A DNA stretch of 64,000 bases from Patescibacteria group bacterium (lineage in GTDB: Bacteria; Patescibacteriota; Minisyncoccia; Minisyncoccales; RBG-13-36-15). Numbering within the stretch: the stretch's first letter is position 1; each line of letters starts with the position of its first letter. Shown one piece after another: positions 291 through 59,087 of this stretch. The stretch lies in contig JAHCSE010000004.1 of the NCBI GenBank assembly GCA_018609195.1, positions 8,474 through 72,473 on the forward strand. The letters run 5' to 3'. The translations under genes and the position numbers were made by a program. The notes beneath the pieces are model-generated. The model had not been told where the DNA came from. It saw only the letters and a program-made list of their open reading frames with translations, and ran no database searches.

Positions 291-809
291 ATGTCTAGAA
301 CTTTAATCACTGCGATTTGCCTGGGTTTAACTCTTATTTTGGGAATATTTTTCCTTTGGCCAAAATACCAGAGTTTTAAAAACCTCCAACTCCAACTTAA
401 AAATAAAGAAATTGAGTTTAGATATCAAGATGAATATTATCAAGAATTATTTTCCCTTTCAGAGAAATTAAAAGAATTTGAAACAGAGCTTTCAAATATT
501 GATTCAGCTTTACCCTCTAACCTTTCTTTGCCTTCTTTGTATAATTTCCTTCAAAAAACATCTTCAGAAAATGGATTGATTTTAAACAGTATAGGTTCTT
601 TTTCCCTTTCTCGCCTGCCTGAAAGAACAAATATTCAGTTAATCTCAATACCTATTGAAGTTTCAGGATCTTACCCTTCCCTTAAAAATTTCTTGAAGGC
701 TTTGGAAAAATCGACAAGAATAATTGAAGTTGATGGTATTTCTTTCTCCTCTCCTGAAGAGAGGGAACTATTTGGATTCAAATTAGGAGTTAAAACCCAT
801 TCTTACTAA
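291..809 (+). CDS. PilO-like type IV pilus assembly protein
   Basis: 172 aa. N-terminal TM helix (ITAICLGLTLILGIFFLW), then a coiled-coil segment and an alpha/beta C-terminal domain. Sits upstream of pilB in a pilus locus. Confidence 0.55.
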   Translation: MSRTLITAICLGLTLILGIFFLWPKYQSFKNLQLQLKNKEIEFRYQDEYYQELFSLSEKLKEFETELSNIDSALPSNLSLPSLYNFLQKTSSENGLILNSIGSFSLSRLPERTNIQLISIPIEVSGSYPSLKNFLKALEKSTRIIEVDGISFSSPEERELFGFKLGVKTHSY

Positions 810-814
810 ATTCA

Positions 815-1078
815 ATGGCAATTTTTACTTTGGGAGGAGAAAAACAAAAATATTTAACTTGGATTTTTCTAATTTTAGTTCTACTTTTAATAGTTTGGTT
901 TGGCAGAGGTTTTTTCATAAAACCTTCCCCTCCTCCCCCTCCATTACCTCAACCAAAGAAAGTAGAAATAAATTTTGAAGCATTGAAAAATCCTCTATTG
1001 AAAGATCTTAATCCTTTTGAAGAAATCCCCATTTTTGAAGAAGAAATTGGCAGAGAAAATCCCTTTTTAACTTTTTAA
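815..1078 (+). CDS. small membrane protein with proline-rich linker (unknown function, pilus locus)
   Basis: 87 aa with one TM helix (LTWIFLILVLLLIVWF) followed by PSPPPPPLPQP. Tightly packed between the pilO-like gene and pilB. Confidence 0.45.
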   Translation: MAIFTLGGEKQKYLTWIFLILVLLLIVWFGRGFFIKPSPPPPPLPQPKKVEINFEALKNPLLKDLNPFEEIPIFEEEIGRENPFLTF

Positions 1079-1105
1079 AAATTAAAAATGTAAAAATTTA
1101 AAAAT

Positions 1106-2836
1106 ATGTCAAGCTTAGTTCAAACTTTACTTAAAAAAGGAATCTTAGATAAGGAAAAGGCAACCTCTCTAGAGTTTGAAGTTAAAAGTTCAGGGAAAAA
1201 AGAGGAAGAGGTAATTTTAGAGAAGGAAATAGTTAATGAAAAATTTTTGTTTAATTTAAAAAGTGAGAGTCTTAAGATTCCTTTAAAAGAAGTTGACATT
1301 GAAGGAATTCCCCTCACTGTTTTAGAGTTAATTCCTGAGGAATCAGCCAGATATTATAAAATAATTCCTTTGGCGAAAAAAGATAATGTTTTAGAAGTGG
1401 GAATGGTCTATCCTGAAGATTTGGTTGCCCAGGAGGCTTTAAAATTTTTAGCTAGGCAAAGCAAATTTCCCTATCAGGTTTCTCTCATTACCCCTAGTAC
1501 TTTTGATAAACTCTGGAGGAAATACCGAACTTTAAGGGGAGAGGTGACAAAAGCTCTGGAAGAATTGAGGGCTGAACTGGAAATAGAAAGGGTTGAAGCT
1601 AAACCAATGAAGTTAGCTGAGCTGGAAAGGGTAGTTGAGGAAGCCCCCGTTACCAAGATTGTGGCGGTAATAACAAGGCATGCCGTTGAAGGAAAGGCCT
1701 CTGATATTCATATTGAACCCTTAAGGGAAAAATCAAGAGTCAGATTCAGGGTGGATGGAATTTTGCATTCCAGCCTCTTTTTACCTCTGAGAATTCATCC
1801 AGCGGTTGTGGCTCGGGTGAAAATTCTTTCTGATATGAGATTGGATGAAACCAGGGTTCCTCAAGATGGCAGATTCTCAACGAAAATAGGAGGGAAAGAT
1901 ATTGATTTTCGAGTTTCAACCTATCCTACCACCTTAGGGGAAAAAGTAGCAATTAGAATTTTAGATCCCAGTGAAGGATTGAAAGATATTGAAGAATTGG
2001 GGCTGGTTGGTAGAAATTTGAGCGTAGTGAGAGAAGCTCTTAAAAAAGCCTATGGGTTAATTTTCGTTACCGGTCCAACCGGTTGTGGAAAGACTACTAC
2101 CCTATATGCGATGTTATCCCGATTAAACAAAGAGGAAGTGAATATTTTAACTATTGAAGATCCAGTGGAATATTTCTTAGAAGGGGTAAATCAATCTCAA
2201 ATTAGACCAGAGATTGGCTACGATTTCGCCTCAGGTATGCGTCACATGGTAAGGCAAGACCCAGATATTATTATGGTAGGAGAAGTTCGGGATCCAGACA
2301 CAGCAGCTTTGGCCATCCATGCTACCTTAACTGGGCATGTGGTATTATCTACCTTGCACACTACCAATGCCCTAGCAGTAATTCCCAGATTGATTGAAAT
2401 GGGTGTTGAACCTTATTTAGTTCCTCCTACTGTTAATATTGTAATAGCCCAGAGATTGCTCAGGCTTTTATGTCCTGAATGCAAAAAGAAGGTCAGGCCC
2501 AAAGAAGAAATTAAAGCTCTGATTTTAAAAGAAATAGATTTTTTACCCCAAGCTATTAAAAAAGATGTAAAACTTCCAAAACCCTTTGTCATTTACGAAG
2601 GGAAAGGTTGCAAAAAATGTAATCAGCAAGGTTTAATTGGGAGAACCGCTATTTTTGAAGTCTTGAAGATGACCGATGAATTAGCTGATATTGTTATGCG
2701 AGAACCCTCAGAAGCTAGGATTCGAGAAGAGGCTCATCGCCAGAGAATGATTACTATGAAACAAGATGGAATTTTAAAGGTTTTAGAAGGGATAATACCA
2801 ATTGAGGAAGTTTTAAGAGTAGCTGAGGAAAAGTAG
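1106..2836 (+). CDS. pilB: type IV pilus assembly ATPase PilB (GspE family)
   Basis: 576 aa. Walker A GPTGCGKTT, Asp box DPDIIMVGEVRD, His box LTGHVVLSTLHT, tetracysteine CPEC...CKKC. Confidence 0.9.
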   Translation: MSSLVQTLLKKGILDKEKATSLEFEVKSSGKKEEEVILEKEIVNEKFLFNLKSESLKIPLKEVDIEGIPLTVLELIPEESARYYKIIPLAKKDNVLEVGMVYPEDLVAQEALKFLARQSKFPYQVSLITPSTFDKLWRKYRTLRGEVTKALEELRAELEIERVEAKPMKLAELERVVEEAPVTKIVAVITRHAVEGKASDIHIEPLREKSRVRFRVDGILHSSLFLPLRIHPAVVARVKILSDMRLDETRVPQDGRFSTKIGGKDIDFRVSTYPTTLGEKVAIRILDPSEGLKDIEELGLVGRNLSVVREALKKAYGLIFVTGPTGCGKTTTLYAMLSRLNKEEVNILTIEDPVEYFLEGVNQSQIRPEIGYDFASGMRHMVRQDPDIIMVGEVRDPDTAALAIHATLTGHVVLSTLHTTNALAVIPRLIEMGVEPYLVPPTVNIVIAQRLLRLLCPECKKKVRPKEEIKALILKEIDFLPQAIKKDVKLPKPFVIYEGKGCKKCNQQGLIGRTAIFEVLKMTDELADIVMREPSEARIREEAHRQRMITMKQDGILKVLEGIIPIEEVLRVAEEK

Positions 2837-2932
2837 TAGCTTGGGACTGGTAGCTGGTAGTTAGGGAATAGTTTTAATCTACAAGAAATCAATACCAAAA
2901 CTACTAGCTATCAACTACTAACTATAAAATTT

Positions 2933-3298
2933 ATGAAAACTATTTTATTAGTTGAAGATGATCCTTTCCTGACCGATCTTTATACTACCAGGTTAAAGGC
3001 AGCTGATTTCGAAATAGAAGTTGCTCTTACTGGTAAAGAAGGATTGGAAAAATTGAAAGAGCGGAAACCCGACCTTTTAGTTTTAGATATCGTTTTACCG
3101 ACTATTGATGGTTGGGAAATCCTTCAAGAACTTAGGAAAGATGAAAGATTTAATGATTTGAAAATCGTTGTTCTTTCTAATCTTGATCAAAAAGAAGATA
3201 TTAAGAGAGCCTTTGATTTTGAGGTGATGAAATATTTAATTAAAGCCCACTATACTCCAACCGAAGTAGTAGAGGAGATAAAGAAAATCTTAAAATAA
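2933..3298 (+). CDS. single-domain response regulator (receiver only)
   Basis: 121 aa. LLVEDD acidic pocket, phospho-acceptor context LLVLDIVLP, conserved K in MKYLIKA. No output domain. Confidence 0.85.
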   Translation: MKTILLVEDDPFLTDLYTTRLKAADFEIEVALTGKEGLEKLKERKPDLLVLDIVLPTIDGWEILQELRKDERFNDLKIVVLSNLDQKEDIKRAFDFEVMKYLIKAHYTPTEVVEEIKKILK

Positions 3299-3301
3299 AA
3301 T

Positions 3302-4369
3302 ATGGATTATTCTTCCCAACTAAAAAAATTACTCTCGCTGACTATTCAAGCTGATGCGTCTGATTTGCATATCTCAGTTGGCCATCCGCCCGTCTTGCGA
3401 ATTACCGGGAGATTAGTTCCTCTTTTAAAAGAAAAGAAAATTGTAGGAGAAGATTCTCAGGGTTTAGCTTTTGCTTTAATGACAGAAGATCAAAAATCAC
3501 GATTTTTAAAAGAAAAAGAAATTGATTTTTCCTATAGTTTTGAAAATCGGGTCCGATTCCGAATAAATATTTTTCATCAAAGTTCAGAAATTTCTATTGC
3601 CTGTAGATTGATACCAGCGAAAATTAGAACTATTGATGAACTAAACCTTCCTCCAATTTTGCATAATTTTACTAGACCTTCTCAGGGATTTATATTAATA
3701 ACTGGTCCTTCCAGTCATGGGAAGTCCACCACTTTAGCTGCACTTATTGATGAAATAAATCATACCAGAACAGATCATATAATTACCATTGAAGATCCTA
3801 TTGAATATGTATTTAAAGATGATAGATCGATTGTTGACCAGAGAGAACTCTATCAAGATACCTTATCTTTTGCGAGAGCTTTGAGATCCACTTTCAGAGA
3901 AGATCCAGACGTAATAATGGTTGGGGAAATGAGAGATCCTGAGACGATGGCAATAGCCATTACCGCTGCTGAAACCGGCCACTTAGTTTTTGCCACTTTA
4001 CATACTAACTCAGCCGGTCAGACCATTCATCGAATTGTTGACTCCTTTGCTTCTGGGCAACAAAATCAAGTTAGAGCTCAGTTATCTGCTTCTTTATTAG
4101 GCGTGATTTCTCAGAGGTTAATCCCTAGAACGAAGGGAGGATTGATTCCAGCTTGCGAAATGCTGATTAATACTCCAGCTGTTGCCAATTTAATTCGGGA
4201 AAATAAAATTCATGAAATTCCTTTAGTGATTGAAACTTCATTAGAAATAGGAATGATTTCCCTTAATCGCTCACTTGCCAGTCTGGTTAAGGGAAAAGAA
4301 ATTTCTTTTGATAATGCCTTACGTTATTCTTTAAATCCAGCTGAATTAAGAACTCTGGTCAGGAAATAG
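3302..4369 (+). CDS. pilT: twitching-motility retraction ATPase PilT
   Basis: 355 aa. Walker A GPSSHGKST, DPDVIMVGEMRD, TGHLVFATLHT. Size and lack of an N-terminal GspE domain are typical of PilT. Confidence 0.9.
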   Translation: MDYSSQLKKLLSLTIQADASDLHISVGHPPVLRITGRLVPLLKEKKIVGEDSQGLAFALMTEDQKSRFLKEKEIDFSYSFENRVRFRINIFHQSSEISIACRLIPAKIRTIDELNLPPILHNFTRPSQGFILITGPSSHGKSTTLAALIDEINHTRTDHIITIEDPIEYVFKDDRSIVDQRELYQDTLSFARALRSTFREDPDVIMVGEMRDPETMAIAITAAETGHLVFATLHTNSAGQTIHRIVDSFASGQQNQVRAQLSASLLGVISQRLIPRTKGGLIPACEMLINTPAVANLIRENKIHEIPLVIETSLEIGMISLNRSLASLVKGKEISFDNALRYSLNPAELRTLVRK

Positions 4370-4370
4370 T

Positions 4371-5585
4371 ATGAAATTTAATTATCAAGCGAGAACCAAG
4401 ACCGGAGATATTCAATCAGGAGTGGTAGAAGCTTCCAGTCAGGAAGGGGCTTTGACTATTTTGCAAAGGTATGGTCTGTATGTCACAATTTTGGAAGAAA
4501 TTAAACCTTCTCCACTCTTTGTAAAAAGAATAAGAATATTTGAGAGAGTTTCGAGGAGAGATCGGGCGATGTTTGCCAGACAACTCTCCATTATGTTTAA
4601 ATCAAAGGTTTCTTTAGTGGAGGCTTTACGAGTTTTAGTTGCCCAGACTCCAAGCCCTTTTTTTCGAGAAAAAATTTTAAAAATTGCTGGTGAGGTAGAA
4701 GGAGGATCTCCTTTATCTAAGGCTTTATCTCGCTTCCCGAATATTTTTTCTGGCTTTTTTGTGGCTATGGTTAAATCAGGAGAAACGGCTGGAAAATTAT
4801 CTGAAGCCTTAGAATATTTAGCTGACCATTTGGAACGAGAGCATCACTTTTACTCTCGGGTCTGGGGAGCAATGCTCTATCCTGTTATGGTAATAGTGGT
4901 AATGCTTGGAGTAGTTTTGGTAATGATTCTTTTTGTCTTCCCGCAAATAGCTCAAATTGTCGAAGAAACTGGGGTGGAGCCTCCTCTCATTACCAAAATA
5001 ACCTTTGGAGTGATTAATTTTATAAGGAAATGGATAATAGCTATAGTTTTAGCTTTAATTACTGCTGTTTTATTTCTTTTTCAGTATCTAAAAACCAAGG
5101 AAGGAAAGGAAGTTCTTTCCAAATTTTCTTTGAAAACCCCTATAATTAAAAATCTTTTACAAATGATTTATCTTTCTCGTTTTGCTGAAAACCTCTCCAC
5201 TTTATTTGCAGGAGGAGTACCCATTGCCCAGGCCCTGGAGGTTTCTGGGGAAGTAGTAGGGAGCGAAGTTTACAAAAAAATTATTTTAGAAATGAGAGAT
5301 GAAGTAAGAAAAGGAGGAACCATAAGTTCTGTTTTGCAAAGATATCCTGAAGCTTTCCCTCCGGTCTTTACCCAAATGACCTTAGTTGGAGAAAGAACCG
5401 GAACTTTAGATCAGACCTTACTCCATTTGGTAAGTTTTTATCAAAAAGAAGTGGAGAGAAATTTAGAGAATATCTTGACTCTCTTGGTACCTTTCACCAT
5501 TGTTTTTTTAGGGATTATTGTCGGGGGCTTAGTAGGTTCAGTTATCCTTACTCTCTATCAAGTAGTGGGCGAATTGGGCGTTTAA
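4371..5585 (+). CDS. pilC: type IV pilus platform protein PilC (GspF family)
   Basis: 404 aa polytopic membrane protein with the duplicated GspF-type cytoplasmic domain. Follows pilT with a 1-nt gap. Confidence 0.88.
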   Translation: MKFNYQARTKTGDIQSGVVEASSQEGALTILQRYGLYVTILEEIKPSPLFVKRIRIFERVSRRDRAMFARQLSIMFKSKVSLVEALRVLVAQTPSPFFREKILKIAGEVEGGSPLSKALSRFPNIFSGFFVAMVKSGETAGKLSEALEYLADHLEREHHFYSRVWGAMLYPVMVIVVMLGVVLVMILFVFPQIAQIVEETGVEPPLITKITFGVINFIRKWIIAIVLALITAVLFLFQYLKTKEGKEVLSKFSLKTPIIKNLLQMIYLSRFAENLSTLFAGGVPIAQALEVSGEVVGSEVYKKIILEMRDEVRKGGTISSVLQRYPEAFPPVFTQMTLVGERTGTLDQTLLHLVSFYQKEVERNLENILTLLVPFTIVFLGIIVGGLVGSVILTLYQVVGELGV

Positions 5586-5623
5586 GTTTTCCACAGTTTA
5601 ATGTAATGGAAATATGCTATAAT
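5586..5623 (+). promoter_or_regulatory. pilin promoter region: conserved box GTTTTCCACAG plus GCTATAAT -10
   Basis: GTTTTCCACAG at 5586-5596 and TATAAT at 5618-5623. The same two blocks, with nearly identical spacing, recur at 59088-59124 upstream of the other major pilin. Confidence 0.45.
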
Positions 5624-5683
5624 AAATAAAATAGAAATAACAAAGGTCGAGCAAAGTAAATTTTAAGATTAAAAATTAACAAA

Positions 5684-6193
5684 ATGATTCAAATTTTTAG
5701 CAAAAAAAGAGGGGAAAAAGGTTTTACCTTGATTGAATTGTTAGTGGTTATTGCCATCATTGGAATTTTAGCTGGAATTGTCTTGGTGGCTTTGGGTGGA
5801 GCGAGAAGTCAGGCCAAAGACGCCCGAATTATTGCTGCGATGGCTCAAATGCGGACCCAAGCTGAGATTTTCCAAATTGACGTTGCTAGTTACGCTGGCT
5901 TTGTCTGTGGTGCAGTTGCTGGTAGTGCTAATCCGCCAGAGATGGAAGGCATCTGTGTAGATGTTAATCTCCAAAATGGTACTCTTGGTGGGCGACCGGT
6001 AGTGATGGAAGATGGCACTAGTTATTGTGCCTATGCCGTTTTGGCCACATCAGGTTCTCCTGCAGACAAATGGTATTGTGTAGATTCTACTGGAGTGGCA
6101 GGTACTACCGCAATTGATCCTGGAGCTACTGTCGTTGGTGCTAGTAATGACTGTACTGGCGCAATAGCAACTAACGATTTCGTATGTCCATAG
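5684..6193 (+). CDS. type IV (major) pilin
   Basis: 169 aa. Class III signal and N-methylation motif KGFTLIELLVVIAIIGILAGIVL. Cys pairs in the C-terminal globular part. Confidence 0.85.
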   Translation: MIQIFSKKRGEKGFTLIELLVVIAIIGILAGIVLVALGGARSQAKDARIIAAMAQMRTQAEIFQIDVASYAGFVCGAVAGSANPPEMEGICVDVNLQNGTLGGRPVVMEDGTSYCAYAVLATSGSPADKWYCVDSTGVAGTTAIDPGATVVGASNDCTGAIATNDFVCP

Positions 6194-6288
6194 AGAATGA
6201 GTGTTAAGTCTATTTTTGACTATTCTGGCTCGAGTAAAAAAGGAAGTTTCTCAAAAATAAAAATAGGCCGACATTTCTTTCCCGCAAC

Positions 6289-6319
6289 CAACCCGCCTCT
6301 CCGGCGGGTTGATTTTTTT
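6289..6319 (+). terminator. rho-independent terminator after pilin 1
   Basis: CAACCCGCC-tctcc-GGCGGGTTG followed by a T7 run. Confidence 0.8.
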
Positions 6320-6400
6320 ATATTCCTAATTTTTCATTTTTAGAGTATCATATAAAAAAAGAAGTTATTTAACTTTCGGAGATCCAATCTCGGAAAATTA

Positions 6401-7063
6401 ATGTTACAAATTTTCATTAAAAAGCGCCAAGGGTTTACTCTGATTGAAATTATGGTCGTCATTGCTGTCATTGCTATTTTAGCTGGCATTGTGTTGGTGG
6501 CTTTCGGTCCAGCCAGAAAGCAGGCCAAAGATTCCAGGATTGAGAGCGATATGAATCAGCTTCAGAATTTTGCTGAAAATCTTTATTTGGAGGAGGGAAA
6601 TTATGATAATGTAGATCCTGTTCTTTCTCCTGAAATTGCTGCTCTGGAAAGTGATATTATTGCCCAACAAGGAAGTTCGCCAGGGTTAATAATTGAAAAA
6701 CCCTCATCTCCACCTCCAGCTGATCAATATTGCGTCTATGCTTCTTTAAATAGCTTTAACAATTGTGTTGATCCGGGGCCTGCTTCTGAGTTTTTCTGTG
6801 TTGATTCTTGGGGTACAGCGAAAAAGGTGGGTACTCCCCCAGATGTCCACTGCTTTCCCAACTTTCTCTGTGTCGCCTATTTTGATTTTAATGGGGACGG
6901 AGCAATAACAATAGATGAAATAGAACAAGGCCTTGTTCTCACTCCTTCATGGAACTGTTGTGGTACGGGTGTTCCATGCGATCCTAAACTAGATCTTAAT
7001 AATGATGGATGCGTAAATCTAATAGATTTCCTTCAAGTTAAGGGTAAACTATGTACTACTTAG
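6401..7063 (+). CDS. type IV pilin with C-terminal dockerin-like (paired Ca-binding loop) module
   Basis: 220 aa. N-terminal QGFTLIEIMVVIAVIAILAGIVL. The C-terminus carries two DxNxDGxxxxxD loops (DFNGDGAITIDE, DLNNDGCVNLID). Confidence 0.8.
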   Translation: MLQIFIKKRQGFTLIEIMVVIAVIAILAGIVLVAFGPARKQAKDSRIESDMNQLQNFAENLYLEEGNYDNVDPVLSPEIAALESDIIAQQGSSPGLIIEKPSSPPPADQYCVYASLNSFNNCVDPGPASEFFCVDSWGTAKKVGTPPDVHCFPNFLCVAYFDFNGDGAITIDEIEQGLVLTPSWNCCGTGVPCDPKLDLNNDGCVNLIDFLQVKGKLCTT

Positions 7064-7145
7064 CTACAGCGATTATTGAAATCTTTAATTCGACACAGGG
7101 AAAGAAACCCTGTATTTTATTTTCTAAATTAAATATAATTAAAAA

Positions 7146-7940
7146 ATGATTCTATTTTATTTCATTGTTTTTCCTTTCGGCTTGGCAGTAGGTTCTTTTT
7201 TGAATTCAATAATTTATCGCATCCAGACTGGCGAGGGTTTTTTATTTCAAAGATCCTATTGCCCCCATTGTAAAAAAATTCTCAGCTGGCAAGATTTAAT
7301 TCCCCTTTTGAGTTTTTTATTTTTAAAAGGAAAATGCAGCTATTGCCAAGAGAAAATCTCCTATCAGTATCCGTTAGTAGAGCTATCTACAGGGTTTTTA
7401 TTTGTCTTCACGGTTTATAAATTTTCTCCTTTAACCTTGGGAGATTTTTTAGCTATTAGTTATTGGCTATTAGCTATTAGCTTCTTAATTGTAATTTTTG
7501 TTTTTGATCTAAAATATTACATCATTCCAGATAAAATAATTTATCCAGCTATTTTTGTATCTGGTATCTGGTATCTGGTATCTGGTATTTTTTTTAACAT
7601 CTATACAAAATACGAGATACTAAATACGATATACGCTGCTTTCGGAGCCTCCACCTTTTTCTTATTTATTGTCTTGATCTCCCACGGAAAGTGGATGGGC
7701 TGGGGCGATCCTAAATTAGCTTTTTTTATGGGCCTGCTTCTTGGATTTCCAAATATTTTAACTGCCCTCTTTTTAGCTTTCTTTATCGGAGCTATAATAG
7801 GAATAGGATTGATAATTTTTGGAAAGAAAACCTTAAAGTCAGAGATACCTTTTGGCCCCTTTTTAGTGACCGGAACCCTTCTTTCTTTATTTTTTGGCGA
7901 GGAAATTCTAAACTTGTATTTAAAATTTTTTACAATTTAA
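7146..7940 (+). CDS. pilD: prepilin peptidase PilD (A24 family)
   Basis: 264 aa polytopic protein. N-terminal Cys pairs CPHCKK / CSYCQE. Aspartyl motifs FDLKYYIIPD and GWGDPKL. Confidence 0.85.
   Translation: MILFYFIVFPFGLAVGSFLNSIIYRIQTGEGFLFQRSYCPHCKKILSWQDLIPLLSFLFLKGKCSYCQEKISYQYPLVELSTGFLFVFTVYKFSPLTLGDFLAISYWLLAISFLIVIFVFDLKYYIIPDKIIYPAIFVSGIWYLVSGIFFNIYTKYEILNTIYAAFGASTFFLFIVLISHGKWMGWGDPKLAFFMGLLLGFPNILTALFLAFFIGAIIGIGLIIFGKKTLKSEIPFGPFLVTGTLLSLFFGEEILNLYLKFFTI
7557..7588 (+). repeat. heptanucleotide tandem repeat (GTATCTG)x4 plus partial unit, inside pilD
   Basis: Read directly: gtatctg gtatctg gtatctg gtatctg gtat. The unit length is not a multiple of 3. Confidence 0.9.
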
Positions 7941-7943
7941 AAA

Positions 7944-8492
7944 ATGGAAAAACAATATTCTAAAAAATCATTTACTATTATTGAACTAATCGTCGTTATA
8001 AGTATTATCATTATTATCTCAGGAATAGTTTTGGTTAATTATGGGGCAGGCCAAAAGCAACTTAATCTTCAAAGGTCAACTTCCAAATTAGCTCAGGATA
8101 TCAGAAGAGTCCAAGAAATGACAATGTCAGCGAAAGAATGTACTCATCCTACGGTATGCCCCGCAGGAGGGGTTCCTCCGGGAGGATACGGTATTTATTT
8201 TAACAAAGACGTAAAAGACAGTTATATTATTTATGCTGACATTAGTTCTCCGAATGAACAGCGGAATCCGGGAGGAGAAGAGGATATCGAAACTATTTCT
8301 TTGGGAAAAGAGGTGGAAATTGACTCCGTTACTCCCCCTAAAGCGAGTATAAATTTTAAGCCTCCTGATCCAATAGTAAGACTAAAAAATGAAGCCGGTA
8401 TTAATCAATCAAATGTAACAATAATTTTAAGAGCTGATTCCAACACTAAAACCATTCAAGTCAATAAAGTTGGCCGAATTGATATAGACTAA
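7944..8492 (+). CDS. minor pilin / pseudopilin (FimT/GspH-like position)
   Basis: 182 aa. N-terminal KSFTIIELIVVISIIIIISGIVL prepilin-type motif. Confidence 0.7.
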   Translation: MEKQYSKKSFTIIELIVVISIIIIISGIVLVNYGAGQKQLNLQRSTSKLAQDIRRVQEMTMSAKECTHPTVCPAGGVPPGGYGIYFNKDVKDSYIIYADISSPNEQRNPGGEEDIETISLGKEVEIDSVTPPKASINFKPPDPIVRLKNEAGINQSNVTIILRADSNTKTIQVNKVGRIDID

Positions 8493-8561
8493 AAATCATC
8501 TGAACATATAAACATGTAAACATCTAAACATGTTAAAATGCTAAAATGTTTAAATGTTAAA

Positions 8562-9056
8562 ATGAACAAAAAGGGCTTCACCCTTTTAGAAGTTATTGTC
8601 GCTATTTTTTTAGTTACCGTGGGGATTTCCGGTGTTTTTCTTTTAATTACCAGAACGATCGGCATAATATCCCTTTCTTTTTCCCAGCTTACAGCTGCTT
8701 ACTTAACCCAGGAAGGGATTGAAATTGTCAGAAACGTCAGAGATACAAATTGGTTAGATCCTCTCAATCCTTCTTGGGATGATGGGTTATCGGCCGGAAA
8801 TTGGGAGGCTGATTATACCACTCCGACTTTAAATGATACTTATGATGGTGATTTGTTAAATATTGATGGAGATGGTTTTTATAGTTATTCTCCTGGCACT
8901 CCAACTAAATTTAAAAGAAGAATCACTATTGTACCAGAAGATATAGATTTAGATGGAATAAACGATATTTTAAAGGTTACTGTTTTAGTTGAATGGCAAG
9001 AAAAAGGGAAAATCCATTCCCATACTGCCCAGGAAAATTTGTATAACTGGAAATAA
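8562..9056 (+). CDS. minor pilin (PilV-like)
   Basis: ORF track starts at 8538, but MNKKGFTLLEVIVAIFLVTVGISGVF begins at ATG 8562. The upstream codons lie in a word-repeat spacer. Confidence 0.7.
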   Translation: MNKKGFTLLEVIVAIFLVTVGISGVFLLITRTIGIISLSFSQLTAAYLTQEGIEIVRNVRDTNWLDPLNPSWDDGLSAGNWEADYTTPTLNDTYDGDLLNIDGDGFYSYSPGTPTKFKRRITIVPEDIDLDGINDILKVTVLVEWQEKGKIHSHTAQENLYNWK

Positions 9057-9083
9057 AATAATATTTAATTGTTAATAGTATAA

Positions 9084-9662
9084 ATGAATAAAAGCAAAGC
9101 TTTTACACTAATCGAAATGCTTGTTGCGGTAACCATTTTTTCCTTGGTTATTGGCTCAGCGAGCGGTCTTTTGATTTCAGCCATTAGGTCTCAGACTAAG
9201 GCTTTGGCCTCTCAGAAGATTTTGGACGAAACAAGTTTTGTAATGGAATATATGAGCAGAGCTTTAAGAATGGCGAAGAAGGAATTAAATTGTCCAGGTG
9301 TTGATTGTTGTCTTATTGATAATGGAAATGGTTATAATTACGAGAATCCAGGATTGGATACCACCAGAATAAAATTTATAAGATTTATAGGTACTCAAGA
9401 TGTCTGTCAAGAATTTCGCTTAAACAGCGTCAGTGATCAGTTAGAGGAATATAGAGATGGTATCTTTTTTGGAGAGTTAACTTCCGATGGGCTGGAAGTA
9501 TCTTCTCTCCAATTTAATCTTATAGGAGTAGCTCAACCTCCAACAGATGATCTTCAGCCGAGAGTCACTATCTCAATGAAAATAAAAAAGGCAGGAGTAG
9601 CAAAGCCAGAAATTAAAATACAGACCACCATTTCCCAGAGAAACTTGGATGTGCAACAATAA
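9084..9662 (+). CDS. minor pilin (PilW-like)
   Basis: 192 aa. N-terminal KAFTLIEMLVAVTIFSLVIGSASGLL. Confidence 0.7.
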   Translation: MNKSKAFTLIEMLVAVTIFSLVIGSASGLLISAIRSQTKALASQKILDETSFVMEYMSRALRMAKKELNCPGVDCCLIDNGNGYNYENPGLDTTRIKFIRFIGTQDVCQEFRLNSVSDQLEEYRDGIFFGELTSDGLEVSSLQFNLIGVAQPPTDDLQPRVTISMKIKKAGVAKPEIKIQTTISQRNLDVQQ

Positions 9663-9741
9663 AAACTAAACCAATAGAACAATGCAACAATGTAACAACG
9701 TAAAGTTGCGTGGCAACCACGTTGCTTTACGCAATAAAACA

Positions 9742-10095
9742 ATGCAACGTGGTATTGCTCTCTATTTAGCTCTTATTGTTATGTTTATTTTACTTGGCAT
9801 TGGCTTGGGAATAAGTACTATTTTAATTGGTCAAATTAAGATAATTAGAGGAGTAGGTAATTCAGTCGTTGCTTTTTATGCTGCCGATACCGGAGTCGAA
9901 AGAGTTTTATATGCGATTCGAAAAGAAGGATATTGTTCTCCTCCTCCTTTATTACCCGTTCAACCTTTTATAGATGTTGCTTTAGGCAATGGTGCGACTT
10001 ATACAGTGACTATTACTGCTTGTAATGGCGCTACAACTATTGATTCAAAAGGAACCTATCAAGAAACTCGTCGAGCAATAGAGATTACCTACTAA
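9742..10095 (+). CDS. PilX-like minor pilin
   Basis: ORF track starts at 9682. The likely start is ATG 9742 (MQRGIALYLALIVMFILLGIGLGIST), because the upstream part is a palindromic spacer. Last gene of the minor-pilin block. Confidence 0.55.
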   Translation: MQRGIALYLALIVMFILLGIGLGISTILIGQIKIIRGVGNSVVAFYAADTGVERVLYAIRKEGYCSPPPLLPVQPFIDVALGNGATYTVTITACNGATTIDSKGTYQETRRAIEITY

Positions 10096-12502: not shown

Positions 12503-13594
12503 ATGGCATCTATTATTGCTCACTTTAAAAAATTAGATTGGATAATTATTTTTTCTGTCCTGCTGCTGGTTGCCATTGGTCTTTTATCAATATATAGCTC
12601 CTCCCTATCTGGAGATTTTTTGAATTTTAAAAAACAGATTATTTTTTTAGGAATAGGCTTATTCATCCTGGTTTTATTTAGTTTTTTTGATTGGAGAGTG
12701 TTCAGAGATAATCCCTATTTAATTTTAGTTCTCTATTTTTTTTCTTTATTGGCTTTAGTCGGTCTATTTTTTTTAGCTCCAGAAATTAGAGGGGTGAAGA
12801 GCTGGTACAGATTGGGTCCTCTGGCTTTTGATCCAATAGAATTTACCAAAATTATTTTGATTATTCTGTTAGCTAAATTTTTTTCAATGAGGCATATCGA
12901 AATGTATCGTGTAGTGCATATTCTCCTTTCTGGAATGTATGTTTTCTTACCAGCTACCTTAATTTTTTTCCAGCCAAATTTTGGGTCGGCCCTCATCTTA
13001 ATTATTTTTTGGATAGCTATTTTAATTATTTCTGGGATAAAAACTCGCCATTTTTTAATTTTAATTATTTTGGGATTACTATCTCTAATTTTGATTTGGT
13101 CATTTTTATTAAAAGATTATCAACAAGAGAGAATTATTAGTTTTCTCCAACCTCAGATTGAACCTTTAGGAATTGGCTGGAGTCAGAAACAAGCTCAAAT
13201 TGCTATAGGAACAGGTGGAATTTTTGGTCAGGGAATTGGCCAGGGTTCTCAAACTCAATATGGGTTTTTAACTGTTCCCCAGACTGATTTTATTTTTTCT
13301 GCCATTGCTGAAGAAATGGGATTTTTTGGGGTTACAATTTTATTAATCCTTTTTTCTATTTTAATCTGGCGGATTTTTAAAATTGCCCTTTTAGCTAAAA
13401 CCAATTTCTCCCGGCTTTTTGCTGTGGGATTCGCCACCCTTTTAATTTCTCAGGCTTTCATCCACATTGGAATGAATTTAGGGCTTTTGCCCATTATCGG
13501 TATATCCTTGCCCTTGGTTAGTTATGGAGGATCGGGTTTGATTGCTACTTTTATCGGATTAGGGATATTGCAAAGCATCAGAACTAAAGCCTGA
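12503..13594 (+). CDS. SEDS-family peptidoglycan polymerase (FtsW/RodA)
   Basis: 363 aa, about 10 TM helices. C-terminal LPLVSYGGSGLIA motif typical of FtsW/RodA/SpoVE. Confidence 0.85.
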   Translation: MASIIAHFKKLDWIIIFSVLLLVAIGLLSIYSSSLSGDFLNFKKQIIFLGIGLFILVLFSFFDWRVFRDNPYLILVLYFFSLLALVGLFFLAPEIRGVKSWYRLGPLAFDPIEFTKIILIILLAKFFSMRHIEMYRVVHILLSGMYVFLPATLIFFQPNFGSALILIIFWIAILIISGIKTRHFLILIILGLLSLILIWSFLLKDYQQERIISFLQPQIEPLGIGWSQKQAQIAIGTGGIFGQGIGQGSQTQYGFLTVPQTDFIFSAIAEEMGFFGVTILLILFSILIWRIFKIALLAKTNFSRLFAVGFATLLISQAFIHIGMNLGLLPIIGISLPLVSYGGSGLIATFIGLGILQSIRTKA

Positions 13595-13860
13595 CAGCCA
13601 AAAGCCTGAAAGCTAAACAGCCTAGGGCCGTTAATATTACTGAGGGAAGCAGGAGGCGAACAATAAAAAATTGGAAACACTTTTATCTGATAACCGATAC
13701 TTCCTTTTAAGTTATGAATTGGGCTATATCATTAAAAAAGAGGTAACTAACTAACCAAGTTAGGGAAATAGGTAAAATGTTTTTTGGACTAAGCCGAGGA
13801 CTGTAAGGCTGGAGGCTGTAGGGCTGAGAGGCTGGCAAAGAGTTTTCCCCAGTCTCAGTC

Positions 13861-14064: not shown

Positions 14065-14149
14065 TGTCAAGCCCTCCTAACTTTTTGGACCAGAGCCCCT
14101 GGCTCTCGATTGGACGAAAGCCAGTCCAAAAAGTTTGGAGGGCAAGCCC
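14065..14149. repeat. hairpin element IR1 (arms GCCCTCC.AACTTTTTGGAC / GTCCAAAAAGTTTGGAGGGC)
   Basis: Arms at 14065-14090 and 14124-14149 match 21/22 as an inverted repeat. The left end carries TTGACA on the minus strand. Confidence 0.85.
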
Positions 14150-14185
14150 TTATCTCCCAAATTTTTGGGCTATGGATAACTAGAT

Positions 14186-14473
14186 ATGCATTATGTTTAT
14201 GCTATCCAGGGTAAGAAAAATAAAAAGATATATATTGGTTATACCAACGATTTGCGAAAAAGATTTAAAATGCATAATTTAGGAAAAGTATTTTCTACTC
14301 AACCATATAAACCATTTGATTTGATATATTACGAGGCTTATCGAAATAAAAATGACGCTGTAGAAAGAGAAAAATTTCTTAAATCTGGTTGGGGAAAGAA
14401 TTATATGAAGCGAATCCTTAAACATTATTTTGCTGCCCAAAAATTTGGGAGGGCAAGTCCGCCCAAATTTTGA
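14186..14473 (+). CDS. small GIY-YIG nuclease-superfamily protein
   Basis: 95 aa. N-terminal YVYAIQGKKNKKIYIGYTNDLRKRFKMHN (GIY...YIG, conserved R). The last 13 codons are read from a repeat arm. Confidence 0.8.
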   Translation: MHYVYAIQGKKNKKIYIGYTNDLRKRFKMHNLGKVFSTQPYKPFDLIYYEAYRNKNDAVEREKFLKSGWGKNYMKRILKHYFAAQKFGRASPPKF

Positions 14474-14500
14474 GAAACAAAACTTGGGAGGGCAAGCCCT
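14436..14500. repeat. two tandem half-copies of the IR arm (TTGGGAGGGCAAG[T/C]CC)
   Basis: ccaaaaatttgggagggcaagtcc (14436-14460) and caaaacttgggagggcaagccc (14478-14500). Confidence 0.8.
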
Positions 14501-14526: not shown

Positions 14527-17379
14527 ATGAATAATAAAGAAGAATCAAAATATATTTCTCTTCAGGAAGCTACAAAATACTGTTCCTATTCTCAGGATTA
14601 TTTATCTTTGCTGGCGAGAACCGGAAAATTGAAGTCAGTAAAGATTGGCAGGAATTGGGTGACTACCAAAGAATGGATTGAGGAATATATAGAAAGAGTG
14701 AAAGAGTTTAATAATTATAATCGGTTACCCAAAAAGAATCTCATCAGGGTTGAAGTTAAATTCGAGGAAGAGGAAATCTCAGAAAGTCCGTCCCCATTAT
14801 CTGAGTCTTCAGAGGACACTTCACCTTTTCAAGAGTTGCCAAAAGTTAGACAACCAGAGCAAGCCCCCCTCCTTATTTTAGCTTTTGCCCTGGTTTTTGT
14901 TTTACTGATAGCTGCCGGAATTTTTGGTAAAGAGAATTTCAAAAATGCTTTTCAACAGATCGATCCTTATGTAACAGCAATTAATCAAGAAGTTGATGAA
15001 GGAATTGTCCAAGGATGGAAAGGGATTCAGAAAGGGGTTCAGGGGATTGGTGGAGCTGGAGATTTTGTTTTTGAAGGGGCAGCTAAATCTTTTGAAGAAA
15101 GTTTTGTTACGGTCTCTAGGGATGCTTATCAATTCTCCCGGGAAGCTGTTTCCATGTTTGGAGAAATTACGGTTCTCGGTTCAGTAGGGGCTAATCAATT
15201 AGCTGAGGTTTCTCAGGAAATTCCAAAATCAATTTTGGAATCGATAAAAAACATTGGCCAATCAATAGGCCAAGGAACAAAAAATATGGCCTCTGGTATT
15301 AGTTCTCGGCTCTCAGGTTTGGCTCAATTCGTCAGCCAGCTTTTCAAAAGAGAAACACTGGTTAAAGTAGAAAAAGAAGTAATACCCGAAGAGTTAGAAA
15401 AAGAAATTGCTAAATTGGCAGATGAGATTGGAAAATTAAAACTGAGAGGATTTCCAGAAAAAGGTCCTCAAGGTCCTCAAGGTTCGCCTGGACCTCCTGG
15501 TCCTCAAGGTCTCTCCGGGCCTCAGGGCCCCACTGGTCCTCAAGGTCCCTCGGGCCCTCCAGGACCCTCTGGGCCTCAAGGAGTGGCAACTCTAGCTGCA
15601 CGTTTTGCAAATTTAAGCACCAATACCGTTTCCATCGGAGGTAATTTTGATTCTCTCAACATAGGAAGAGGGAATCTTACCGTTGATTCAGCTGGAAGTC
15701 TTACTACCTCAGGTTCTCTTACTGTTTCAGGAACAATTACAGAAGGAGGAACCTCCCTAACCTCCAAATATATTGGTATTCCCTCAGGCTCTACTCAGGG
15801 AGATGTTCTCTATTACAGTGGGGCTGCTTGGGCAAGATTAGCAGCAGGGAGCTCTGGCCAATTTTTACAAACCCAAGGTTCCGGAGCTAATCCTGTTTGG
15901 GCAACAGTAACTTCTGGTTCTACTCTCTGGACAGACGGAGGCACTGTAACTTATCTAACCGCAATCTCTGATGATCTGGCCCTGGGAGGAACTGATTCCA
16001 CTGCTCCCTTCTTCATGGATGTTTCAACTGGGAGCCTGGCACTCACTGGTTCTCTCACCGGAACCGTCCTCAACTTAACTGGTCTCACCAACCAGATTGT
16101 TTTAGATTCAGACGGAACAAACACTGGAACCTTAACCATGGCTTCTCTTTCTGCTTCAAGAACCTGGACCTTACCTAATGCTACCGGCACTGTGATCACC
16201 GCAGGAAACCTCACTGATATCACTTCTGTTACCGGGTTAAACACCCAAAATGCCCTCCAACTTGGTCCCTTCGGTTCCTCAGCAGGAAACACAGGAGAGA
16301 TCAGGTTCTTAGAACTTGCTGCCAGTGGTACTAACTATGTAGGATTTAAAGCTCCTGATGCCATTACCACCAATGTAATTTGGACTCTTCCTGCAGCAGA
16401 TGGCACAGCAGATCAGGTCTTATCCACTAATAGTTCAGGAGTTCTCTCCTGGGCTACTGCCGGAGGTCTCTTTACTGATGGCGGAACCACCACCTATCTG
16501 ACCTCAACCACTGATGATTTAGCCCTTGGAGGCACAGATTCCACTGCTCCCTTCTTCATGGATGTTTCAACTGGGAATTTGACTCTCACAGGTGATCTTG
16601 CTGTCAACGGTGGGGATATTACTTCAACTGGCGCACTTACAATCACGCCTGGAGCTGGAACCAACTTCAATATTGCTCTTTCAACCACTGGAGATTTTGC
16701 CGTCAACACCAATCAACTCTTTGTTGATACCTCAACCGGCCGCGTCGGCATCGGGACGGCGAGTCCAGCCTTCAAACTTGATGTGTTAGGCAGTATCAGA
16801 GCCTCGGACGCCTTTCTGTTCTTCGACGGCTCCACTCAAGCTATGGCAAGCACTCCCAGTGGATTTTCCTGGCGTGTCACTACAGCTTCCTTCCTCCAGT
16901 TATTTAACGTAGCAGGAGAGGAAACAAATCCCCGAGGCGTTTTCTTCAAGCCTGACGGAACAAAGATGTATATTATAGGACTTATTGGTGATGATGTCAA
17001 TGAATATAACTTGTCAACTCCCTGGGATGTCTCAACTGCTTCGTTCCTCCAGTTATTTAGCGTATCAGGAGAGGAAACAGTCCCTACAGGCGTTTTCTTC
17101 AAGCCAGACGGAACAAAGATGTATGTTATAGGGTCTACTGGTGATGACGTCAATGAATATAACTTATCAACTCCCTGGGATGTCTTAACAGCTTCGTTCA
17201 ACCAGTTATTTAGCGTGGCAGGAGAGGAAACAGTCCCTACAGGCCTCTTCTTCAAGCCAGACGGAACAAAGATGTATGTTATAGGGCAAAGTGGTGTTGA
17301 TGTCAATGAATATAACTTATCAACTCCCTGGAATGTCTTAACAGCTTCGTTCCTCCAGTTATTTAGCGTATTAGGATAG
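14527..17379 (+). CDS. giant surface-fibre protein, N-terminal part (HTH, TM, collagen-like, tail-fibre-like repeats, 51-aa repeats); ends at in-frame TAG
   Basis: 950 codons. N-terminal excisionase-type HTH ([46 protein letters not shown]), TM helix [22 protein letters not shown], 13 G-X-Y triplets, repeated [16 protein letters not shown] blocks. Confidence 0.85.
15463..15579 (+). repeat. collagen-like G-X-Y tract (13 triplets)
   Basis: [39 protein letters not shown], read in the gene frame. Confidence 0.9.
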
Positions 17380-17634
17380 GAAATAGTCCCTACAGGCGTT
17401 TTCTTCAAGCCAGACGGAACAAAGATGTATGTTATAGGGACTGCTGGTGATGAGGTCAATGAATATAACTTATCAACTCCCTGGGATGTCTTAACTGCTT
17501 CGTTCAACCAGTTATTTAGCGTGGCAGGAGAGGACACAGCCCCTACAGGCGTTTTCTTCAAGCCAGACGGAACAAAGATGTATGTTATAGGAGATAATGA
17601 TGATGATGTCAATGAATATGACTTAGGCCTTATC
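16870..17634 (+). repeat. five tandem 153-nt (51-codon) repeats inside the giant gene
   Basis: Units start at 16870, 17023, 17176, 17329 and 17482. Consensus W[DN][43 protein letters not shown]. Confidence 0.9.
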
Positions 17635-19395
17635 ATAGAAGGCAACGTCGGCATTGGGACGACGGGGCCGGGGTCCAAATTAGATGTTACTACCAACTCT
17701 CTGGGCATTACCCAGACTAATACTTCTGGCCTGGCTCTGGTCAATACCACTGCTGCTGCAGCTGGGTTGCAGCAGATATCCCCAGCTCTAAGGTGGAGAG
17801 GGTTTGGCTGGAAAACCGGTGGTCCTAACCCTGCTAGTCAGTCAGTCGACTTTAGATCTTTCGTGAGGCCAATTCAAGGAGCAGCCGCTCCCACGGGTGG
17901 ATTAGATTTTCAAAGCAGTATTAATGGTGGAGCTTACAGTGACTTGTTGACGATTTTAAGCACGGGCAACGTCGGCATCGGGACGGCGAGTCCTATAAAA
18001 AAACTCTCAGTCGCCGGTAAATTTTATTCACACAAAGACGCTGATATCACAGCCAGAAATTACCTCACTGATAATTCCTGGGTCTCCAGAACTTCAGCCG
18101 CTGACAATAGTTGGTTTGCCATAACCTGGTCTCCGGAGCTTGGCCTGTTCGCCGCCGTAGCTGACTCCGGCACAGACAACCGGGTCATGACCTCTCCAGA
18201 CGGCATTACCTGGACAATCAGAACTTCAGCCGCTGACAATGATTGGCTTGGCATAACCTGGTCTCCGGAGCTTGGCCTGTTCGCCGCCGTAGCTGCCACT
18301 GGCACAGGCAACAGGGTCATGACCTCGGTCAGCTCAAAATTGTCGCCTATGGTGAGCGTAGTAGCTGCTACGGACGACCGCGAAACTTTGTGTATAGCTA
18401 TCGGTGGCGGTGTTGTTACTAGAGATGCCGCAGGCAATGACTGCGACATTTCCTCTGCACGCTTCAAATATAATATTGAGGAACTTGATATTAACGGCAT
18501 TGACATCGTGAATTCTTTTAAACCTTCGTCCTTTATTAAAAATTCTGATAAGACAAACAGAATACAATGGGGATTTATTGCTGAAAATATTGCGGTAAGC
18601 AACCCACACCTTGCTTTGTATGACGAAGATGGTCTTCCGTATTCAATATCAAAGTATGGAATTATGGCGGTACTCGCCAAATCCATTCAAGAAATCTCCC
18701 AGCGCATAGATCTAACAGAAGAAAGCTTGGCATTCTTACAGCCTGACAGCCAACAGCCAGAAGGAGATTCTTTACTTGATGGTTTTGTTCAAAAAATAAA
18801 ACAAGCCTTAGCTTCCCTGGGGCTCGTAATTGAAAATGGAATTTTACAGGTTCAGAAATTAGTCGCAGGTGTTATAGAGACCGAAAATTTGAAAGTGGGA
18901 AGCCCAGAGAAGCCAACTGGCGTTACTCTCTATGATGAGGTGAGTGGTCAGTCATATTGTATTAAGATACGAAACGGGCAGATGGTAAGTTATGAGGGAG
19001 AATGCCAAGCAGGAAACCCTTCTGACCAAGCACTAACTGAAGAGCCGCCGGTTGAACAATCACCAGTAGAGCCATCTTCTACCGAACCACCTCCCACTGA
19101 GCCCCCGGTAGAGCCATCTCCAGCTGAGGAACCTTCAGGAGAACAACCCCCCACTGAAGAGCCTACGATTGAAGAACCACCAGCTGGACAAGAACCTCTG
19201 GTTGAAGAACCGCCAATAGGGGAGCCTCCATTAGAAGAACCACTTGCTGGAGAATCACCACCTACTGAGGAGCCACCAATTGAGGAACCACCTCCTTTAG
19301 AAGAACCACCAGCTGAGGAGGAACCTCCAGCTGAGGAACCCATAGTTGAAGAACCAGTTGTTGAGGAACCTGTTCTGGAGGAGCCAGCTGAATAA
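17425..19395 (+). CDS. giant surface-fibre protein, C-terminal part (same frame as 14527..17379; frame open from 17380)
   Basis: 656 codons. Contains VGIGT..P..KL.V tail-fibre motifs, two BNR/Asp-box-containing repeats (SPDGITW), an S74-type intramolecular chaperone signature (SSARFKYNIEEL...WGFIAENI) and a P/E-rich tail. Confidence 0.8.
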   Translation: MYVIGTAGDEVNEYNLSTPWDVLTASFNQLFSVAGEDTAPTGVFFKPDGTKMYVIGDNDDDVNEYDLGLIIEGNVGIGTTGPGSKLDVTTNSLGITQTNTSGLALVNTTAAAAGLQQISPALRWRGFGWKTGGPNPASQSVDFRSFVRPIQGAAAPTGGLDFQSSINGGAYSDLLTILSTGNVGIGTASPIKKLSVAGKFYSHKDADITARNYLTDNSWVSRTSAADNSWFAITWSPELGLFAAVADSGTDNRVMTSPDGITWTIRTSAADNDWLGITWSPELGLFAAVAATGTGNRVMTSVSSKLSPMVSVVAATDDRETLCIAIGGGVVTRDAAGNDCDISSARFKYNIEELDINGIDIVNSFKPSSFIKNSDKTNRIQWGFIAENIAVSNPHLALYDEDGLPYSISKYGIMAVLAKSIQEISQRIDLTEESLAFLQPDSQQPEGDSLLDGFVQKIKQALASLGLVIENGILQVQKLVAGVIETENLKVGSPEKPTGVTLYDEVSGQSYCIKIRNGQMVSYEGECQAGNPSDQALTEEPPVEQSPVEPSSTEPPPTEPPVEPSPAEEPSGEQPPTEEPTIEEPPAGQEPLVEEPPIGEPPLEEPLAGESPPTEEPPIEEPPPLEEPPAEEEPPAEEPIVEEPVVEEPVLEEPAE

Positions 19396-52401: not shown

Positions 52402-54093
52402 ATGGAAATTACTGGAAAAATTTTAAAAAAAATTTTCGTTGATTCAGGTTTAATTAACCAAAAAAAATTTTCTTTAGCAAAAAAAATAGCGAAGGAGCGA
52501 AAAGAGTCTCTGACAAACGTAATTTTAGATCAAAGATTAATTTCTGATGAAGAGTTAGGCCAGTTAATTGCAGATTATCTCGGCTTCCCTTTTGTAAATT
52601 TGAGAAAAATAGAAATCAATCGCGAAATTTTAACTATCTTACCCGAAATTGTGGCTAAAAAACAGGAAATTATTATCTTTGATAGAAACCAAAAAGGAAT
52701 AAAAGTAGCATTTCGCCAACCCGAAAATTTAGAGATTAGAGAATTTATTGAAAGGAAAACAGGGGATAAGGTAATCCCTTACTATGCCACTAAAAGAGAT
52801 ATTCAAGAATCCTTAAAATATTACCGCAAAGAGATAAAAACGGAATTTGAAGAAATTATTAAAAAGTCCCTTGAAGAACTCAAAAAAACCCATAAAAGAC
52901 CTACGGATGAACCCTTGCCGATAATTAAGGCTATGGATTTAATTTTACATTATGGCTACGACAATAAAGCTTCTGACATCCATATTGAACCTTATAAGAA
53001 CGAAACCGTGTTGAGATATCGGATCGATGGAGTTTTACACGATGTATTAACTTTACCTAAAATTCTTCATGATTTTTTAGTTTCGAGGATTAAGATTCTA
53101 TCTAAACTTCGAATTGATATTCATGATGCCGCCCAAGATGGCCATTTTTCATTTCAAGTTCCCTCAGAGAAAGTCGATGTAAGGGTTTCTGTTGTTCCTA
53201 TTGAAGAGGGAGAAAAAGTAGTGTTGAGGCTTCTTTCAGAAAGAGCAAGAAGGTTTGAGTTGAAAGATTTAGGCTTGGAATTAAATGAACTAAAAATTAT
53301 TAGGAAAAATATAAAAAAACCTTGGGGGATGATTTTAGTTTCAGGGCCTACTGGTTGCGGTAAAACAACTACGTTATATGCCATTTTGAAAATTTTGAAT
53401 GTGAGAGAAGTTAATATTTGTACTATTGAAGATCCAATTGAATATGATATTGAAGGAATAAGTCAGATTCAGGCCAATCCTAAAACAGGATTGAATTTTT
53501 CCAAAGGCCTTAGAGCAATAATTCGCCAGGACCCCGATATTATTATGGTGGGTGAAATCAGAGATGAGGAAACTGCTGCATTAGCCGTAAATTCGGCAAT
53601 GACCGGGCACCAAGTTTTATCTACCTTTCACGCTACCGATTCTTCCACCACTTTACCCAGGCTTTTAGATATGAAAATTGAACCTTTTTTACTTTCAACC
53701 TCCTTAATCTTAGTTATTGCCCAAAGACTCGTGAGAAAAATTTGTCCAAAGTGTATTGAAAGTTATGAAATTTCTTTTGCCAGGTTATCTCAGTTTTTAG
53801 GTAAAGATTTGGCCGTAAAATTTCCCAGAACAAAAGAAAATAAAATTCGCCTTTTCCGGGGAAAGGGATGCCCGCTTTGCCAGAAAACAGGATATTTGGG
53901 AAGAACAGGAATTTTCGAGGCTTTAGAAATAAAAGACCCGATTAAAAAGCTAATTATGGAAAAAGCTAATGCTTCTCAGATCAGGGCCAAAACTCAAAGG
54001 CTGGGAATGAGAACAATGGTTGAAGATGGTCTCAATAAAGTTGAAAGAGGGATTACTGCTCTGGAAGAGGTTTTAAGAGCAGCCCAAGAATAA
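52402..54093 (+). CDS. second PilB/GspE-family assembly ATPase
   Basis: 563 aa. Walker A GPTGCGKTT, DPDIIMVGEIRD, MTGHQVLSTFHA, CPKC...CPLC. Confidence 0.9.
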   Translation: MEITGKILKKIFVDSGLINQKKFSLAKKIAKERKESLTNVILDQRLISDEELGQLIADYLGFPFVNLRKIEINREILTILPEIVAKKQEIIIFDRNQKGIKVAFRQPENLEIREFIERKTGDKVIPYYATKRDIQESLKYYRKEIKTEFEEIIKKSLEELKKTHKRPTDEPLPIIKAMDLILHYGYDNKASDIHIEPYKNETVLRYRIDGVLHDVLTLPKILHDFLVSRIKILSKLRIDIHDAAQDGHFSFQVPSEKVDVRVSVVPIEEGEKVVLRLLSERARRFELKDLGLELNELKIIRKNIKKPWGMILVSGPTGCGKTTTLYAILKILNVREVNICTIEDPIEYDIEGISQIQANPKTGLNFSKGLRAIIRQDPDIIMVGEIRDEETAALAVNSAMTGHQVLSTFHATDSSTTLPRLLDMKIEPFLLSTSLILVIAQRLVRKICPKCIESYEISFARLSQFLGKDLAVKFPRTKENKIRLFRGKGCPLCQKTGYLGRTGIFEALEIKDPIKKLIMEKANASQIRAKTQRLGMRTMVEDGLNKVERGITALEEVLRAAQE

Positions 54094-54123
54094 AAATCTA
54101 AAAAACTAAAAAGTTTTTAAATC

Positions 54124-55179: not shown

Positions 55180-55202
55180 ATAAGCATTAGAGGAGATTTT
55201 TT

Positions 55203-55637: not shown

Positions 55638-55639
55638 CA

Positions 55640-56485: not shown

Positions 56486-56490
56486 TTTTT

Positions 56491-57441: not shown

Positions 57442-57458
57442 TAAATGAAAAATTTAAA

Positions 57459-57926: not shown

Positions 57927-57928
57927 AA

Positions 57929-59017: not shown

Positions 59018-59087
59018 AATTTGAGCTTAATAAAATGGAAAATGTATTAAAATCTAAAAATTATAAGTCGACTTTAAACATCACTTA

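Follow-up and report, generated by a model that had tools for sequence, protein, structure and literature searches.

Premature stop codons are known in bacterial surface adhesin genes, as in the truncated inlA alleles of Listeria monocytogenes. Two other kinds of system also bear comparison with an in-frame stop in a surface-protein gene: TAG is recoded to glutamine in some phages, with a suppressor tRNA, and to pyrrolysine in other cases; and phase-variable contingency loci depend on slippage in short repeats of surface-protein genes. Here we describe a giant gene, probably encoding a trimeric, membrane-anchored surface fibre, that is divided by one amber codon on contig JAHCSE010000004.1 of a Patescibacteria group bacterium (assembly GCA_018609195.1). 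The window referred to throughout is the stretch of 64,000 nucleotides at positions 8,474 to 72,473 of the forward strand of that contig, and coordinates are positions within it. We lean towards a very recent nonsense mutation as the origin of the stop, with a consensus error as the chief competitor.

Translation of 14527-19395 gives a frame of 1622 codons with a single stop, the TAG at 17377-17379 (+ strand, codon 951), and the two open reading frames (ORFs) on either side of it, 14527..17379 and 17425..19395, are, as the initial annotation had noted, in one reading frame. The 5′ part of the gene (14527..17379, + strand; 950 codons plus TAG) is defined by ORF, translation and domain matches; the 3′ part (17380..19395, + strand) adds 671 sense codons and TAA in frame, with its first ATG at 17425. 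The stop falls within five tandem 153-nt (51-aa) units that occupy 16870..17634 on the + strand. Tandem Repeats Finder places this array at 16882-17625 (4.9 copies, 88% matches), and in the register of the initial annotation the units start at 16870, 17023, 17176, 17329 and 17482. Unit 4 (17329..17481, + strand), which is nearest to unit 2 (144/153 identical), reads gta tta gga TAG gaa ata gtc around the stop, at a column where units 1, 2, 3 and 5 all have GAG. Alignment of the units agrees with the initial annotation both in this and in the continuation of the repeat, since the 153-nt period and the 51-aa protein motif run on unbroken downstream of the TAG. The site can be written as the k-mer GCGTATTAGGA[G/T]AGGAAATAGTCC, in which the variable base is 17377.

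The arrangement is confined to this gene. Across the 64-kb window, a single gene is divided by one stop into open stretches of 150 codons or more only at 17377-17379, a pattern far beyond chance. Two further pairs of same-frame ORFs are adjacent separate genes, one a prepilin peptidase and a pseudopilin, the other RNase J and a class I (Trp/Tyr-type) tRNA synthetase; the remaining genes of the window are uninterrupted.

Other assemblies of the same strain were reached through the genes adjoining the giant gene. The flanking FtsW and TPR proteins are recorded from at least two contigs, of which one has a length of 750 kb, and the truncated 950-aa product is recorded from a single contig only. 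A homology search did not return the intact proteins of 1842 and 1798 aa, which the protein collection searched does not contain, and exact look-ups of the two window ORFs in a gene-position index gave no match. The closest comparison is with NODE_3 of ERZ25043468 (334,505 bp), to which positions 1-64000 of the window are identical except at 17377 (T in the window, G in NODE_3) and in a 132-nt repeat array further downstream; NODE_3 has GAG at the site between identical flanks, and its gene call is 1842 aa. Joint Genome Institute (JGI) assembly 3300010931 likewise has GAG with identical flanks and a gene call of 1798 aa, and in scaffold_1 of ERZ23500256, again GAG with identical flanks, the frame is open to the contig end. 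For JGI 3300032105, a 750-kb contig, intactness is taken from the gene call alone (1842 aa). The comparison with sister genomes that the initial annotation had proposed thus finds an intact gene in four other same-strain assemblies, three by the GAG codon itself and one by the length of the call, against 950 aa and a stop in the window. Outside the 132-nt array, the 3′ part of the gene (2 kb) is base-for-base the same as in the intact alleles. The only further single-base differences among the assemblies are at 25220 and 62483, where JGI 3300010931 has A and the window G. On this comparison the strain is almost clonal across samples, and the T at 17377 is derived, with G ancestral and the change private to this assembly. 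A search of metagenome_contigs with a degenerate DNA pattern of the site returned no match, that collection evidently being without the JGI samples in which this genome occurs.

The intact alleles also dispose of the changes around the stop. The initial annotation had drawn attention to three further changes within 12 nt; differences do exist there, but the count is four within 15 nt and only two of them, 17372 C>T and 17384 C>T, set unit 4 apart from all the others, the gta codon being common to units 1, 2 and 4 and the first T of tta to units 2 and 4. Since the intact GAG alleles carry the same TTA and ATA changes (their unit 4 reads SVLGEEIVPTG), linkage of these changes to the stop is ruled out and the apparent cluster is a red herring. 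The changes at 17372 and 17384 are older, fixed differences, unrelated to the nonsense change.

We favour, with some reserve, the view that a real and very recent G>T in the sampled population turned the Glu951 codon GAG into the amber codon TAG and serves no programmed function. The substitution would have arisen in the population behind this assembly, and the suggestion of a very recent nonsense mutation, which the initial annotation had listed among its possibilities, is borne out by the comparison with the 334-kb contig: this is the sole substitution, and no decay is seen downstream. Genuine single-base differences occur between assemblies at a similar density, as at 25220 and 62483 in JGI 3300010931. 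No other base differs in 64 kb, so the consensus is of high accuracy. Gene conversion or a chimera between units as the source of the T is ruled out, as no other 153-nt unit has T at that column. The gene is disrupted relative to intact alleles of 1798-1842 aa and has no further lesions downstream; with the downstream frame undecayed, the allele would be at most a nascent pseudogene.

Several points weigh on the other side. The TAG allele occurs in one assembly only. Whatever the model, it is somewhat surprising that the one base to differ in 64 kb should create a nonsense codon, given that 4.1% of random substitutions in the giant gene, and 14% of G>T changes, create a stop; purifying selection makes this more surprising as a real variant than as an error, errors being exempt from selection. 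G>T is also the classic library artefact of oxidative damage. And the assembler probably struggled in this gene, where a repeat array that looks collapsed lies 700 nt downstream in the same assembly.

That second defect concerns a tandem array of 132-nt (44-aa) units marked by the motif SPDGITWT (18087..18326, + strand). It has 1.8 copies in the window, 6.8 in ERZ25043468 (L071:7095-7994) and 5.8 in JGI 3300010931 (L072:7227-7994), and the protein lengths differ by exactly 5 × 44 and 4 × 44 aa. The window array consists of unit 1 followed by a chimera in which unit 2 passes into unit 7 somewhere within 96 nt (18199-18294) that the two share without a difference. Contigs from other assemblers are broken in the 132-nt array or at an earlier internal duplication. 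Judged from these sequences, the reduced array is probably an assembly collapse, although a true homologous deletion may have produced it.

It is accordingly possible, if the less probable account, that the T itself is an artefact of assembly, consensus or library and that the organism has GAG, the T having entered through low coverage, a damaged or PCR-duplicated template, or a minority read path that the assembler retained in a repeat-rich region. The initial annotation had held that reads showing GAG would mark the stop as an artefact; GAG is what three other assemblies carry, but these leave the artefact a rival without settling the matter in its favour. The four intact same-strain assemblies, the single contig with the truncated product, the breaks of other assemblers within the giant gene and the collapse signature in the array (two copies against six or seven, joined within identical sequence) all speak for an error. 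Against it, the T is untemplated by any other unit, which excludes a cross-unit chimera; measured against the other assemblies, the remainder of the 64 kb shows no error; and a 91-kb contig would imply coverage at which random consensus errors are rare.

What the stop would do to the protein follows from the order of its parts, all on the + strand. An HTH_17-like N-terminus (14551-14697) is followed by a single hydrophobic helix (aa 113-134; 14863-14928), a collagen-like Gly-X-Y stretch scoring above the Pfam cut-off (15460-15582), a beta-rich fibre region and then, at the 3′ end of 14527..17379, predicted propeller blades 1 to 3.4. Beyond the stop lie the rest of the blades, the 132-nt array, a Peptidase_S74 domain (18448..18588)—the intramolecular chaperone of endosialidase and tail-fibre proteins—and a Pro/Glu-rich, low-complexity C-terminal tail (19015..19383). 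The Peptidase_S74 match (Pfam PF13884) scores 32.8 and 31.2 bits against a cut-off of 22. The 51-aa repeats are best read as YVTN-type beta-propeller blades: they match PDB 1L0Q_A, a YVTN propeller, with E = 1.3e-15 over 223 residues, and the whole protein matches Pfam SGL at 32.9 bits (cut-off 26.3). As weak support, a single-sequence AlphaFold model of the blades of an orthologue, of low confidence (predicted local distance difference test score, pLDDT, of 58), gave in Foldseek only beta-propeller matches, with TM-scores of about 0.3 or lower.

A mutation of this kind would end translation at codon 951 and leave a membrane-anchored product of 950 aa that stops in blade 4; the final 1.6 blades, the 44-aa repeats and the Peptidase_S74 domain would all be missing. 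The Peptidase_S74 chaperone of phage tail spikes and fibres drives trimer folding and is later cleaved off. By analogy the truncated protein is most likely non-functional, because a C-terminal chaperone that phage fibres need for trimer folding is lost, and the allele would then be a loss-of-function allele and a nascent pseudogene.

The blade repeat and its array have two further aspects. The 51-aa YVTN-like repeat (...NEY.LSTPW) is also found in giant proteins of very distant lineages (loci L002-L070), including Pelagibacter isolates and single-cell genomes, Nanoarchaeota, Omnitrophota, Absconditabacterales and Cyclobacteriaceae, which suggests a widely shared surface-protein module. A minus-strand ORF of 304 aa (16836-17750) spans the 153-nt array; its standing as a real gene is unsupported, and it is probably a by-product of repeat composition.

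A nonsense allele could also have been favoured. One form of this idea, which we regard as improbable, is that a real T allele rose to the majority in one sampled population because loss of this attachment-type fibre was advantageous, for example through escape from phage or from a host response; residual read-through inserting glutamine might alongside this supply a trickle of full-length protein. In effect, an uncultured Patescibacteria episymbiont would then have a giant surface protein naturally knocked out. A related form, to which we give slightly less credence still, is an adaptive on/off variant in which fibre loss is selected in some populations, again for instance as an escape from phage or host defence, and the two alleles coexist. 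The on/off variant had been raised in the initial annotation, and it holds to the extent that both states are found among near-identical genomes; the protein is moreover large, repeat-rich and variable in copy number, and genes of this type often carry such variation. What fails is the switch: the only period found at the site is the 153-nt one, with no hypermutable tract, homopolymer, short tandem tract or invertible element, reversion of a transversion is too infrequent to be of use, and the off state has been seen once, with no sign of selection.

More distant homologues bear on the possibility that the stop is read. A scan of genome_contigs gave one orthologue and more distant relatives, the source genome not being among them. 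The orthologue (P0002, 1518 aa, locus L001) is syntenic, in the order ligA-ftsW-gene-TPR-rpoB, and is uninterrupted through the blades. A second protein (P0003, 1434 aa), also uninterrupted, is 52% identical, with four 51-aa blades and no Peptidase_S74 region; it is probably a paralogous giant fibre protein from the same genome as ERZ23500256 scaffold_1. The homologous blade position is occupied by Gln in P0002 and P0003 (codons CAA or CAG in L001) and by Glu in a third relative. A literature search on giant surface proteins of the candidate phyla radiation (CPR) yielded nothing relevant, and one on the sample accessions gave no hits.

Programmed read-through, suppression, recoding of TAG or insertion of pyrrolysine, by which the full-length protein would still be made, is highly improbable. 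In its favour, the in-frame TAG is single, the downstream frame is perfectly kept, and any protein made by leakage would probably be functional, since near-cognate tRNAs commonly place Gln at UAG and Gln is the residue of the orthologues. Yet among 50 long ORFs in the window TAA is the stop in 33, TAG in 13 (26%) and TGA in 4, and the ORFs ending in TAG include the conserved ligA and rpoC homologues. The window encodes only tRNA-Leu(CAG) and tRNA-Ser(GGA), which are also its only Rfam matches, and about 9 kb of extra flank from other assemblies adds four tRNAs, none of them CUA; the search for a CUA-anticodon tRNA that the initial annotation had recommended thus found none in the ~73 kb searched (window and flanks) of a ~750-kb genome. 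Where reassignment would predict a TAG that is rare as a terminator, present in frame in several genes and conserved, this TAG is in one gene and is not conserved even within the strain. Read-through, as the initial annotation had offered it, is unsupported because TAG is a common terminator, no CUA tRNA was found in that ~73 kb, and the relatives and same-strain assemblies are without the stop. A change of genetic code is ruled out on the grounds that TAG is a common terminator and only one gene is interrupted.

Least credible is a functional split into a 950-aa N-terminal part and a 656-aa part restarting at the ATG at 17425. That ATG lies just 46 nt after the stop, but it encodes a Met that belongs to the blade motif TKMYVIG and recurs in all five units; it is not a dedicated start codon, and no distinct ribosome-binding site precedes it. 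A protein initiated there would open in the middle of a blade and have no membrane anchor, and none of the relatives is split.

The window has a G+C content of 37% and is bacterial chromosome; its nearest named relatives are metagenome-assembled genomes of Patescibacteria (CPR). The genes run in the order ligA, ftsW/rodA, a small GIY-YIG ORF, the giant gene, the TPR protein, rpoB, rpoC and ftsK. The GIY-YIG ORF (14186-14473, 95 aa) lies directly 5′ of the giant gene, in a region (14126-14499) with two sets of repeats: a perfect 17-nt inverted repeat (14154-14170 / 14435-14451) brackets the ORF, and three copies of the 24-nt direct repeat CCAAAAAGTTTGGAGGGCAAGCCC flank it. From its sequence the region resembles a small mobile cassette. 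Between ftsW and this ORF lies a 590-nt spacer, which holds 15-16-nt tandem repeats at 13586-13615 and 13796-13834 and has no match in Rfam. Two separate type IV pilus-like clusters are present, at 291-10095 and 52402-59712, which together encode PilB/MshE-type ATPases, a PilT-like ATPase, PilC, PilM, PilO, a prepilin peptidase and several N-methyl pseudopilins; the giant fibre gene is about 4.5 kb downstream of the first.

For annotation, 14527..17379 and 17425..19395 are one gene, disrupted in this record. Its true product is ~1800-1842 aa (1798-1842 aa in the other assemblies, against 1622 codons in the window), and this assembly is without four to five copies of the 44-aa repeat. The biological weight of a private nonsense substitution or consensus error in one assembly is small; should reads confirm a high frequency of the T allele, it would provide a minor instance of a giant CPR surface protein that varies through loss of function.

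Set beside the described systems, the protein and its interruption resemble each in part. Like phage tail-spike and fibre proteins it has Peptidase_S74 near the C-terminus, a collagen-like stretch and repeated 'NVGIGT' motifs; unlike them it is chromosomal, encoded between ftsW and rpoB, with an HTH-like N-terminus, a membrane helix and no phage context. Its 51-aa repeats match by sequence the YVTN propeller of the Methanosarcina mazei surface layer (PDB 1L0Q), from which it differs in having five very similar blades, 88% identical at the DNA level, set within a fibre; with a model of low confidence, both the number of blades and their closure into a ring are putative. With recoded stops it shares an in-frame TAG in a long, otherwise intact, fibre-like ORF, but here TAG is a frequent terminator, the effect is limited to one gene, the ~73 kb searched yielded no suppressor tRNA and the TAG is not in the same strain elsewhere. 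As at contingency loci, a surface-protein gene is seen in on and off states, but the change is a point transversion in a 153-nt unit, with no slippery repeat or invertible element. The truncated inlA alleles are confirmed in isolates, are recurrent and have measured phenotypes, whereas this allele comes from one metagenome assembly; in both, one altered base introduces a stop that shortens a large surface protein among near-identical strains and leaves the rest of the gene intact. In its behaviour the stop resembles the ordinary premature-stop alleles of bacterial surface-protein genes.

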